This document shows positions 9,312-59,829 of a stretch of DNA of 64,000 nucleotides, piece after piece (position 1 is the first letter of the stretch; each line of letters starts with the position of its first letter). The translations under genes and the position numbers were made by a program. A model generated the notes under the pieces. The model saw only the letters and a list, made by a program, of their open reading frames with translations. It did not search any database and was not told the DNA's origin. This DNA comes from Octopus vulgaris (Eukaryota), in the NCBI GenBank assembly GCA_951406725.2, contig OX597824.1:29140001-29204000 (forward strand), in the 5' to 3' direction.

Positions 9312-9632
9312 CTTTTACTCTTTTATATGTTTTTCAGTCATTTGACTGTGGCCATGCTGGAGCACCACCTTTTAGTGGAGCACGTCAACCCCAGTACTTA
9401 TTCTATTGGTCTCTTTTGTCGAACCGCTAAGTTACGGGGACGTAAACACACCAGCATCGGTTGTCAAGCGAAGTTGGGGGGGGGGAGACAAACACAGACA
9501 CACAAACATATACATACACATACATATATATAAACATATATACGACGGGCTTCTTTCAGTTTCCGTCTACTAAATCCACTCACAAGGCTGAAGCCGGAAC
9601 CATGTGGTTGGTAAGCAAGCTCCTTACCAACA
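9312..9632 (-). mobile_element. SINE family A with internal deletions
   Basis: Head GGTAAGGAGCTTGCTTACCAACCACATGGTTCCGG; tail GGCCACAGTCAAATGACTGAAA...TAAAAGAGTAAAAG. Confidence 0.8.
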
Positions 9633-9722
9633 GTAAACAATATGAAATACGAAAACAAAAGAGTTCAATACACAAACAACGAGAGAAACAAATGGAAGAC
9701 AGGACAAGTAACATAAAGACTG

Positions 9723-9790
9723 ACACTTCATCAGTTGTCGGCTGTCTATATACTCCTCATTTCGAGCATTCAACGACAATATGAGTCTTC
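9723..9790 (-). ncRNA. Non-circularly permuted hammerhead ribozyme candidate, copy 1 (within a ~350-bp repeat, 9634-9990)
   Basis: gaaga-CTCA-T-A-TTGTCG-ttga-ATGCT-C-GAAA-TGAG-15nt-CGACAA-CTGATGA-AGTGT. All three helices pair and covary with copy 2. Confidence 0.75.
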
Positions 9791-10127
9791 GAAGACAGTT
9801 GTTCCCATATCCACCAAAATAAAATCTGGGATTTATGGAGGTTCAAAGTTGGAAATAAAGACAGGACAGTGGAGATATACAAGGAAACCGAACGAAGATA
9901 AATATGGAATGTTGTTTGACGAGAACGAGGGTAAATAGCGAACGCTGGAAAAATGTTTTCTTTGACAAGAGAAAAGAGATATATATGTAGATCCATTTTT
10001 TAGGTAGGCCTACATAATGGATATACAGATGCAATATCCCTGCATATCTCACGTCTATTTCATTCTACTTCACTCTCTATTTCATGTCTTATCTAAAGTA
10101 ACTATCGCTTAGCGATATTCTTACAAC

Positions 10128-58794: not shown

Positions 58795-58849
<55 letters not shown>

Positions 58850-59053
58850 TAAAAGAAATAAAACATATGCATATATATAAACATATATGTACGTACCTAC
58901 CTCTACATGTACATATACACGCATATATGAGTACAGGACACCAAAGGGACGTCGAACACAAAGAGAAACGAAAACATAGACACAAACCAAAGGAACTGGA
59001 CATTTTTTTAAAAACAACAAAAAATGGAGTACAGGACAATTAACAACGAGAAA

Positions 59054-59121
59054 ACCCCTTCTTCAGTCGCTAAGGTTTCATCTACTCTACGTTTCGAAGG
59101 ATAAAAGCGAGACGTATCTTC
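59054..59121 (-). ncRNA. Non-circularly permuted hammerhead ribozyme candidate, copy 2 (within a ~370-bp repeat, 58925-59300)
   Basis: gaaga-TACG-T-C-TCGCT-ttt-ATCCTT-C-GAAA-CGTA-16nt-AGCGA-CTGAAGA-AGGGGT. Confidence 0.78.
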
Positions 59122-59829
59122 GACAAGAAACTTTCCTTCCTGCGAAAAGCAAATCAATTAAAATTCTGAGATCTTTTCGCAGAGGGGTAAAAAATGGTAA
59201 AAAAATGGTAAAAAAACAGGACAGTAACGACAGTACAAAAATATAAACAGTAAAAAAATAAACAGTAAAAAAAAAATATAAACAGTAGGTAAGTTTAATT
59301 TTCAGTGGGTCCCCCAGTACCGATTGACAACTACAGTTAATTGTTTACCTCACCTCAACGTAGCGGTTCGGCAAAAATCCACAGGTAGACTAAGTAGCAA
59401 ATAAAAAATCCTGGGTTCGATTATTTTCGACTAAATTCTTCAAGCTGATGCTCCAACAAATCAGGGACAAAAGATGATGAAGCATTAATATAATTGCCAA
59501 ACTTCTTGAGTAGTCTGTAGCAAAATTTTACTGAATACTTCCAACAATTTTTGGCTAACTGGAATATTTATTTTCTGATTTGAACTTCGATATAATATAT
59601 TACATTTTTTTTTTCACTTCAACGTTTGCTTATAACGAACTAAATTCCATTTCCATCCTCTTAACATACGGTTTGTCATACACAAGCAATAACTTAATAA
59701 TCTCCTTAAAATCAATCTCTTATTTTAAACAGGATTATTTTGTTTAGATTATTACAACAAATTCTATTTACGTCAACAAAATTCTCATATTCAATATTTG
59801 ATTTGACTCCTTGACATACGTACGTACGT

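Follow-up and report, generated by a model that had tools for sequence, protein, structure and literature searches.

The window, a stretch of 64,000 nucleotides of the Octopus vulgaris genome (contig OX597824.1, positions 29,140,001 to 29,204,000), carries on its minus strand a truncated copy of a non-coding tandem-repeat family, here called F2, and within this copy lies a 68-nt stretch, 59054-59121, in which all the letters of the hammerhead core (CUGANGA, GAAA and NUH) are present. A counterpart at 9723-9790 sits in an older copy of a second family, F1 (Table 1). Both spans and their layout read on the minus strand as an earlier sequence-only reading of this DNA had stated, and a descriptor scan of the whole window, covering every hammerhead block order with helices of at least 4 bp and a span of at most 120 nt, returned these two sites only, both in the same order. 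The window motif is a hammerhead core with its blocks in site-GAAA-CUGANGA (SGC) order. When the genome (2.8 Gb, 227 contigs) was searched with a tight pattern made of the GAAGA leader, UH, CGAAA, GAGUA and CUGANGA, 1652 exact matches were obtained against 0 for the reversed control. The expectation that standard searches would miss the motif was borne out, with three Rfam matches to 58950-59250 at E<=10, none of them a hammerhead, and with 400 matches to the whole window, of which the 150 listed likewise include no hammerhead.

Table 1. Features of the window, with positions counted from its first letter, and loci of related type I hammerheads
Feature	Position or locus	Strand	Remarks
5'-truncated F2 copy, non-coding tandem-repeat family with units of ~880-900 bp	58835..59287	-	ends from blastn; 3' end enters TA tract
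(TA)n target tract	58796..58846	.	from sequence; overlaps the element's AU-rich 3' end
Older, decayed F1 copy with the same S-G-C core at 9723-9785	9626..9977	-	86-89% identity
Block J, A' strand (CCCCU)	59183..59187	-	predicted to pair with 59055-59059
Block J, hairpin H, 10-bp stem	59140..59182	-	between A' and B'; absent in F4
Block J, B' strand (GAAGGA)	59134..59139	-	predicted to be the actual 5' strand of stem II; the G at its start pairs with C11.1
Block S	59106..59116	-	helix III strand UACG; U16.1 = 59112, C17 = 59111
Block S, helix I strand UCGCU	59110-59106	-	begins just after the predicted cut
Block G	59088..59101	-	UCCUUC (3' strand of stem II, C11.1 = 59096), GAAA 59095-59092, helix III strand CGUA
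Block C	59055..59071	-	helix I strand AGCGA, core CUGAAGA 59066-59060, AGGGG (helix A)
Type I hammerheads with swapped 3-8 pair	3' UTRs of L125-L129 and L133; L096-L124, L204, L211, L217, L240; L227, L229, L230, L233, L238, L244		

The motif occurs once per unit of about 870-900 bp in at least four non-coding tandem families (F1-F4) and in thousands of copies, in agreement with the earlier proposal of a diversified set of mobile repeats built on a selected, rearranged hammerhead. Copy number and element ends, which that proposal had left to BLAST, came to 2761 candidates for F2 (39 further best-scoring copies at 96-99% identity) and 4640 for the older F1 (best matches at 86-89%), with a fixed (TA)n 3' end. 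F3 is very young, 35 of the 40 scored matches listed being identical at 100%, and has 1265 exact core matches, while F4 and its relatives gave 639 pattern matches against 4 for the control. Further small families with the same spacing of blocks G and C and other helices were also seen (L252, L260, L264, L271, L275 and others). The F2 ends, taken from blastn of 30 loci, are a constant AU-rich site leading into (TA)n on the 3' side and scattered truncation points on the 5' side; nearly all of the 29 other copies share the AU-rich end and then TA, and one of them (L028) ends after a tail of 30-40 nt into the next unit. Such a tail in partial tandems is described as a hallmark of Penelope-like elements (PLEs) in passages of Craig et al. 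2021 (PMC8557442). The insertion features of the Naiad type of PLE, namely (TA)n targeting, 5' truncation and a partial tandem with a tail, are all found. F2 forms partial tandems or arrays, one of which (L093) has seven units, and F3 forms dimers to tetramers; multimers from dimers to 7-mers imply that cutting is incomplete or that the templates are circular. The F1-F3 units show no similarity to PLE proteins and hold only two low-complexity ORFs, with no Naiad ORF (N-terminal GIY-YIG, C-terminal RT) in any of them. Parts of the F2 unit occur in sequencing runs under six organism labels, none of them catalogued as RNA, and contigs of three of the runs, which we guess to be RNA, cover the unit and show no ends.

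Helices I and III and the cleavage triplets stand as first described, and in 13 aligned F1/F2 copies changes on both sides were found at three of the five pairs of helix I and three of the four pairs of helix III. The predicted cut between 59111 and 59110 was also correctly placed, and the 5' ends of copies accumulate just 3' of it. Beyond helix III, the F1 and F2 copies carry a GAAGA/GAGUA pair (59117-59121 with 59083-59087 on the minus strand), which we take to resemble the bulged-G (loop E) motif, and in F3, F4 and Naiad this extension differs. For the fourth helix of type-SGC hammerheads, which links stems I and II distally, short candidates were seen by eye and left uncounted.

The sequence-only reading had claimed compensatory change in all three helices, and this claim holds for helices I and III, whereas the helix II that it proposed (AUCCUU/AGGGGU here, AUGCU/AGUGU in the F1 copy) is an accident, is not conserved and leaves the C before GAAA unpaired. 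With at least 4 bp it is formed in 50 of 53 F2 copies, 4 of 30 F1 copies, and none of the 22 F3, 17 Naiad and one F4 copies, and so fails in three of the four well-sampled families. The version in the F1 copy depends on AGUGU, where most F1 copies have AGGGU, and across the 13 F1/F2 copies the proposed helix II has 88% of cells paired and one pair changed on both sides. A direct stem II that is in register, free of inserts and at least 3 bp long is present in 3 of 123 copies. When inserts are allowed, F3, F4 and Naiad reach a median of 1-2 bp of direct pairing, and in F1 and F2 a weak stem can be made with one inserted base (median 4 bp, 2 of them Watson-Crick). Stem II as it defines the hammerhead class, between the strands that follow A9 and precede G12, is not what the motif presents, and two other helices, A and B, are predicted instead.

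These helices are formed with an upstream block, J (59134-59187), which is predicted to pair with both strands of stem II and to create a three- or four-way junction at the A9/10.1 step. The B' strand of this block pairs with the strand before GAAA (helix B) and the A' strand with the strand after CUGAAGA (helix A), leaving no unpaired bases at the junction of the window copy, in which helix A is worth -9.1 kcal/mol and helix B -6.5 kcal/mol, against -3.9 for the helix II proposed earlier. The extent given for the motif therefore stands for the core, and the true motif reaches about 66 nt further 5', to 59187. In the 13 F1/F2 copies 95% of the cells of helix A and 100% of those of helix B are paired, with three of the five helix B pairs changed on both sides, and over alignment A2 the whole model has 98.4% of cells paired and 11 pairs changed on both sides, as compared with 40-49% of cells for slid controls; these counts lean toward the model, since the 13 copies of A2 were preselected at a junction score of at least 16, and they are limited to F1 and F2 because MAFFT misaligned F3 and Naiad.

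A broader comparison took in 144 copies from five families, allowing the direct stem II 0-2 inserted nucleotides and removing upstream TA-junction copies and duplicate loci. Helix B outdid every in-register direct stem II in 126 of them (56/59 in F2, 28/37 in F1, 20/20 in F3, 10/13 in F4 and 12/15 in Naiad), and its first pair was a G with C11.1 in 139. The junction was detected in 46/53 F2, 19/30 F1, 21/22 F3 and 9/17 Naiad copies, and the J-type arrangement recurs with different letters in F1, F3 and Naiad. When the upstream region was shuffled, the junction score of the window copy was reached in 0 of 200 trials, as were those of L056 and L036 (0/200 each), and that of the Naiad copy L153 in 3/200; the F3 copy put through this test scored only 15 and was reached by 9/200 shuffles, the full F3 junction (score 21) coming from L025. 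The F1 copy of the window has a mutated J block, scoring 12 against 19 for the intact F1 copy L036. In F4 hairpin H is missing and A' lies 3 nt from B'; helix A is down to 3 bp in the octopus Naiad, and in F3 and F4 it requires a 2-nt insert. Nested folding of 59045-59195 was not unusual (z = -0.89), as is expected for a pseudoknot, and this yields no support. We infer that helix B replaces stem II while the backbone exits the core at A9/10.1 into helix A, and the window fold would then be a type-CSG hammerhead that has been opened at A9/10.1, with an extra helix to close it. The papers examined contain no natural hammerhead with an opened 9-10.1 link, so that catalysis by this fold is an extrapolation.

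The same arrangement, S-G-C order with a block J, is found in the 3' UTR of the octopus Naiad, where 11 of 30 loci with a Naiad RT are followed at 0.6-1.5 kb by the motif, in sense in every case. These carriers are decayed. A motif taken from the published Octopus Naiad consensus gave 898 matches at up to 2 mismatches against 0 for the control. Passages of Craig et al. 2021 (PMC8557442) report Naiads as lacking canonical hammerheads, with only 'HHR_core' or 'HHR_half_core' flagged, and mark eight Naiads, Naiad_Ovul among them, as 'HHR_half_core'. In the places of its supplement covered here (CTGATGA 1-60 of 62, CTGAAGA 4-22 of 43, CTGACGA 4-22 of 23 and CTGAGGA 4-22 of 25), layouts were read by eye and species were assigned from neighbouring headers and file order. 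Nine passages have a J-S-G-C layout, three of them by Acropora/Morbakka headers, two in part 12, one each in parts 9 and 19, and Naiad_Obim and Naiad_Ovul, with a mismatch or an extra base in three of the nine; six others, in parts 13-16, have a type-CSG layout, three of them beside nematode headers. These passages suggest a single rule, by which opening CSG between A9 and G10.1 produces J-S-G-C. Natural hammerheads do have single extra bases at A9/10.1 (the SGC-1 oligos of PMC10085705 and certain published table rows), and the portion of Perreault et al. 2011 consulted lists small core insertions, not inserted helices. A blastn comparison of the F1-F3 units with Naiad 3' UTRs found no sequence link, the fold and the block order being what they have in common.

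If the RNA is cut at the motif, reverse transcription is expected to end at the cut. Copies joined to a TA tract were therefore counted by distance from the predicted bond, on the minus strand, one per locus and with TA-joined ends only, and forward-strand TA-gap counts, which overlapping TA registers inflate, were set aside. In F3, 135 of 626 copies (22%) are joined to TA within 12 positions after the cut, and 34 more in the next 19 positions upstream, some of which are impure TA tracts joined at +1. A first downstream control for F3 overlapped the peak and was discarded; the site used in its place, with a TTATA microhomology, gave 5/683 (0.7%). In F2, 97 of 791 copies are joined within 11 positions after the cut and 28 in the next 20 upstream, with 111/1554 over the 31 positions of the downstream control, or per nucleotide 1.1% at the cut against 0.20% upstream and 0.23% downstream. 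The binomial p for near versus upstream is 8e-22 in F2 and 9e-28 in F3. The junctions lie mostly 3-11 nt inside the cut, often at short AT/TA microhomologies, and several are exactly at +1. Twelve of 29 F2 loci extend into the previous unit and none crosses the previous cut, a result that for L010 and L025 is drawn from the flanks because the reference stops at -871. The pile-up is indirect evidence of cleavage in vivo, and copies that start at the predicted cut make it likely that the motif cuts itself in the cell.

Taken with the modelled fold, these observations make it probable, in our judgement, that the motif is a self-cleaving hammerhead of new wiring, present once per unit in non-autonomous, retrozyme-like tandem retroelements of Penelope type and cutting the read-through transcript at 59111/59110. 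Of the other explanations, the one that survives best, though we hold it to be unlikely, is a plain type-SGC hammerhead whose stem II forms directly and in which block J is a lock that separates the stem-II strands until their release. Such a lock would suit the 4-bp direct stem II with one inserted base in F1 and F2, which resembles the validated SGC-1 oligos, the offset helix that nearly every F2 copy (50/53) can form, and the incomplete cleavage that full-unit copies require; yet a direct stem II is reduced to 1-2 bp in F3, F4 and Naiad, while the F3 pile-up is the strongest (135/626), the cnidarian and part-19 Naiad passages available show no direct pairing by eye, and B' consistently offers C11.1 a G, as G10.1 would.

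Somewhat less probable again is an RNA that folds as described and is non-catalytic, the pile-up being due to RT stalling, a protein nuclease, transcription start or microhomology. Most of the pile-up junctions do lie 3-11 nt past the cut and often at AT/TA microhomologies, but the TTATA control site reached only 5/683, the core letters are kept while every helix changes, and two families with unrelated local sequences both have the step at the predicted bond. It is most improbable that a canonical C-G-S hammerhead is put together from the blocks of neighbouring tandem units, or in trans, with the scrambled order incidental, for although arrays exist and dimeric hammerheads are described for retrozymes in passages of PMC7229834, all partners lie within about 135 nt of one unit, the canonical order would need three units about 870 nt apart, Naiad 3' UTRs carry one motif per element, and even then no direct stem II would form.

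With the split-stem hammerhead as the preferred reading, the read-through transcript of tandem units would be cut between 59111 and 59110, and since cleavage would be partial, a template would begin at one cut and in many cases still contain the following ribozyme in uncut form. An RT/GIY-YIG enzyme of Penelope type, supplied in trans, would use nicked (TA)n for priming at the AU-rich stretch about 280 nt downstream, and reverse transcription to the 5' end of the RNA would yield short copies starting from the cut and longer ones that hold one uncut ribozyme. The fold itself would descend from the 3' UTR ribozyme of Naiad elements.

The autonomous RT partner with the same motif that had been anticipated was not found for F1-F4, the RT-bearing carrier being the decayed Naiad at 11 of 30 loci. 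L082, with a GIY-YIG ORF upstream of the motif, was considered and rejected because the motif there is a nested insertion, present in one of 30 loci of its family and behind a TA tract. No S-G-C core was seen downstream of the endonuclease in C-terminal-endonuclease PLEs (endonuclease located in 46 of 50 loci), and the young 753-aa PLE family had none in its 3' UTRs. Among the best 150 scored matches to the decayed RT piece there was no intact Naiad, the matches being broken Naiad pieces or members of the C-terminal-endonuclease family; F3, meanwhile, is still spreading. No sequence link was found between F1-F3 and any RT-bearing element. Intact (TA)n-ending PLEs of the C-terminal-endonuclease type are present, with frames of 753 and 781 aa, and any ribozyme recognisable in them is a minimal type I hammerhead; by eye, the units and some of these PLEs have in common a short CACG-containing stretch after a TA-like boundary. 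We infer that F1-F4 are mobilised in trans by C-terminal-endonuclease PLEs.

Several other features of these PLEs were observed along the way. The window itself holds at 17700-21110 (plus strand) a nearly full-length, broken PLE with an RT, a C-terminal GIY-YIG and a CxxC linker, all by weak Pfam matches, together with an inverted 5' fragment and, by eye, a minimal type I hammerhead at about 20932-20976, a canonical counterpart within the window; near its 5' end, at 17449-17620 (minus strand), a pyrimidine-rich repeat includes a stretch that looks by eye like a decayed hammerhead. The type I hammerheads of C-terminal-endonuclease PLEs have a swapped 3-8 pair, U3-A8 in two families and A3-U8 in another, as against C3-G8, so that standard CUGANGA descriptors would miss them (Table 1). 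In the 781-aa family (L226, L231, L243, L245) the 3' UTR contains repeated TGATGACGTC and GATTGG boxes before a TATA-like site; we assume the former to be CRE-like and the latter CCAAT-like, and the boxes are probably a promoter for the next unit.

Taken a step further, and with somewhat less assurance than for the cleavage reading, the evidence favours the existence of a fourth movable block, that is, of an active natural topology opened at A9-G10.1 in which an upstream strand completes stem II through a three- or four-way junction. This topology would be the missing ribozyme of Naiads in cnidarians, arthropods and molluscs, with nematode Naiads being of type CSG, and in the octopus it would have escaped onto non-coding retrozymes that continue to spread although their Naiad parents have died. 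Naiads would have seemed a ribozyme-free clade of PLEs because the descriptors required the canonical order and a direct stem II. If true, non-circularly permuted hammerheads, until now a curiosity of metatranscriptomes, would become a high-copy feature of animal genomes, and a topology would be added to the six block orders considered exhaustive. A core that depends on an upstream strand would be a ready scaffold for switchable ribozymes, and the pile-up of insertion 5' ends would serve as a genome-only readout of ribozyme cleavage in retroelements, by which the role of ribozymes in Penelope-like elements becomes testable.

A literature search, outside which fell most subscription papers and the supplements of two 2026 preprints, found no paper in which non-circular or split-stem hammerheads are connected with Naiads, octopus or animal genomes, and the main-text passages available from a 2026 ribozyme survey contain no mention of octopus or Penelope. 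Among known systems, the non-LTR retrozymes are alike in being non-coding tandem units with one ribozyme each, from monomers to multimers, and in the available parts of Cervera & de la Pena 2020 (PMC7229834) and Li et al. 2026 (10.64898/2026.07.22.740005) they are proposed to be non-autonomous derivatives of Penelope-like elements. Those retrozymes have type I hammerheads and mostly units of 150-450 bp, whereas the octopus units measure about 870-900 bp and bear a split-stem, non-circular hammerhead in S-G-C order. Expression of non-LTR retrozymes yields linear and circular monomer RNAs. Naiads, so far as the passages of PMC8557442 describe them, share the (TA)n targeting and the partial tandems that bear a tail of 30-40 nt, and the octopus Naiad has the ribozyme layout in its 3' UTR; unlike them, F1-F4 encode nothing, and outside the fold no sequence shared by F1-F3 and Naiad was detectable.

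The closest ribozymes are those of Eckert et al. 2023 (PMC10085705), in the available parts of which the hammerhead is divided into blocks C, G and S with six possible orders, type SGC is validated and published only from metatranscriptomes, and type CSG is known from two metagenomic sequences. With type SGC (HRIMA-1) the octopus motif shares the order S, G, C, the core letters and a short linker between stems I and II, of 4 nt here and typically 3 there. That type has a direct G-C stem II, and the paper takes blocks to be uninterruptible, whereas in the octopus block C is broken up and stem II is predicted to draw its 5' strand from upstream; the published examples are metatranscriptomic, as against thousands of copies in an animal genome. 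Type CSG keeps the A9-10.1 backbone continuous and has neither helix A nor hairpin H, yet the octopus order results exactly when it is opened at A9/G10.1 and block C is shifted to the 3' end. As modelled from sequence, the split-stem wiring lies outside the six published block orders.
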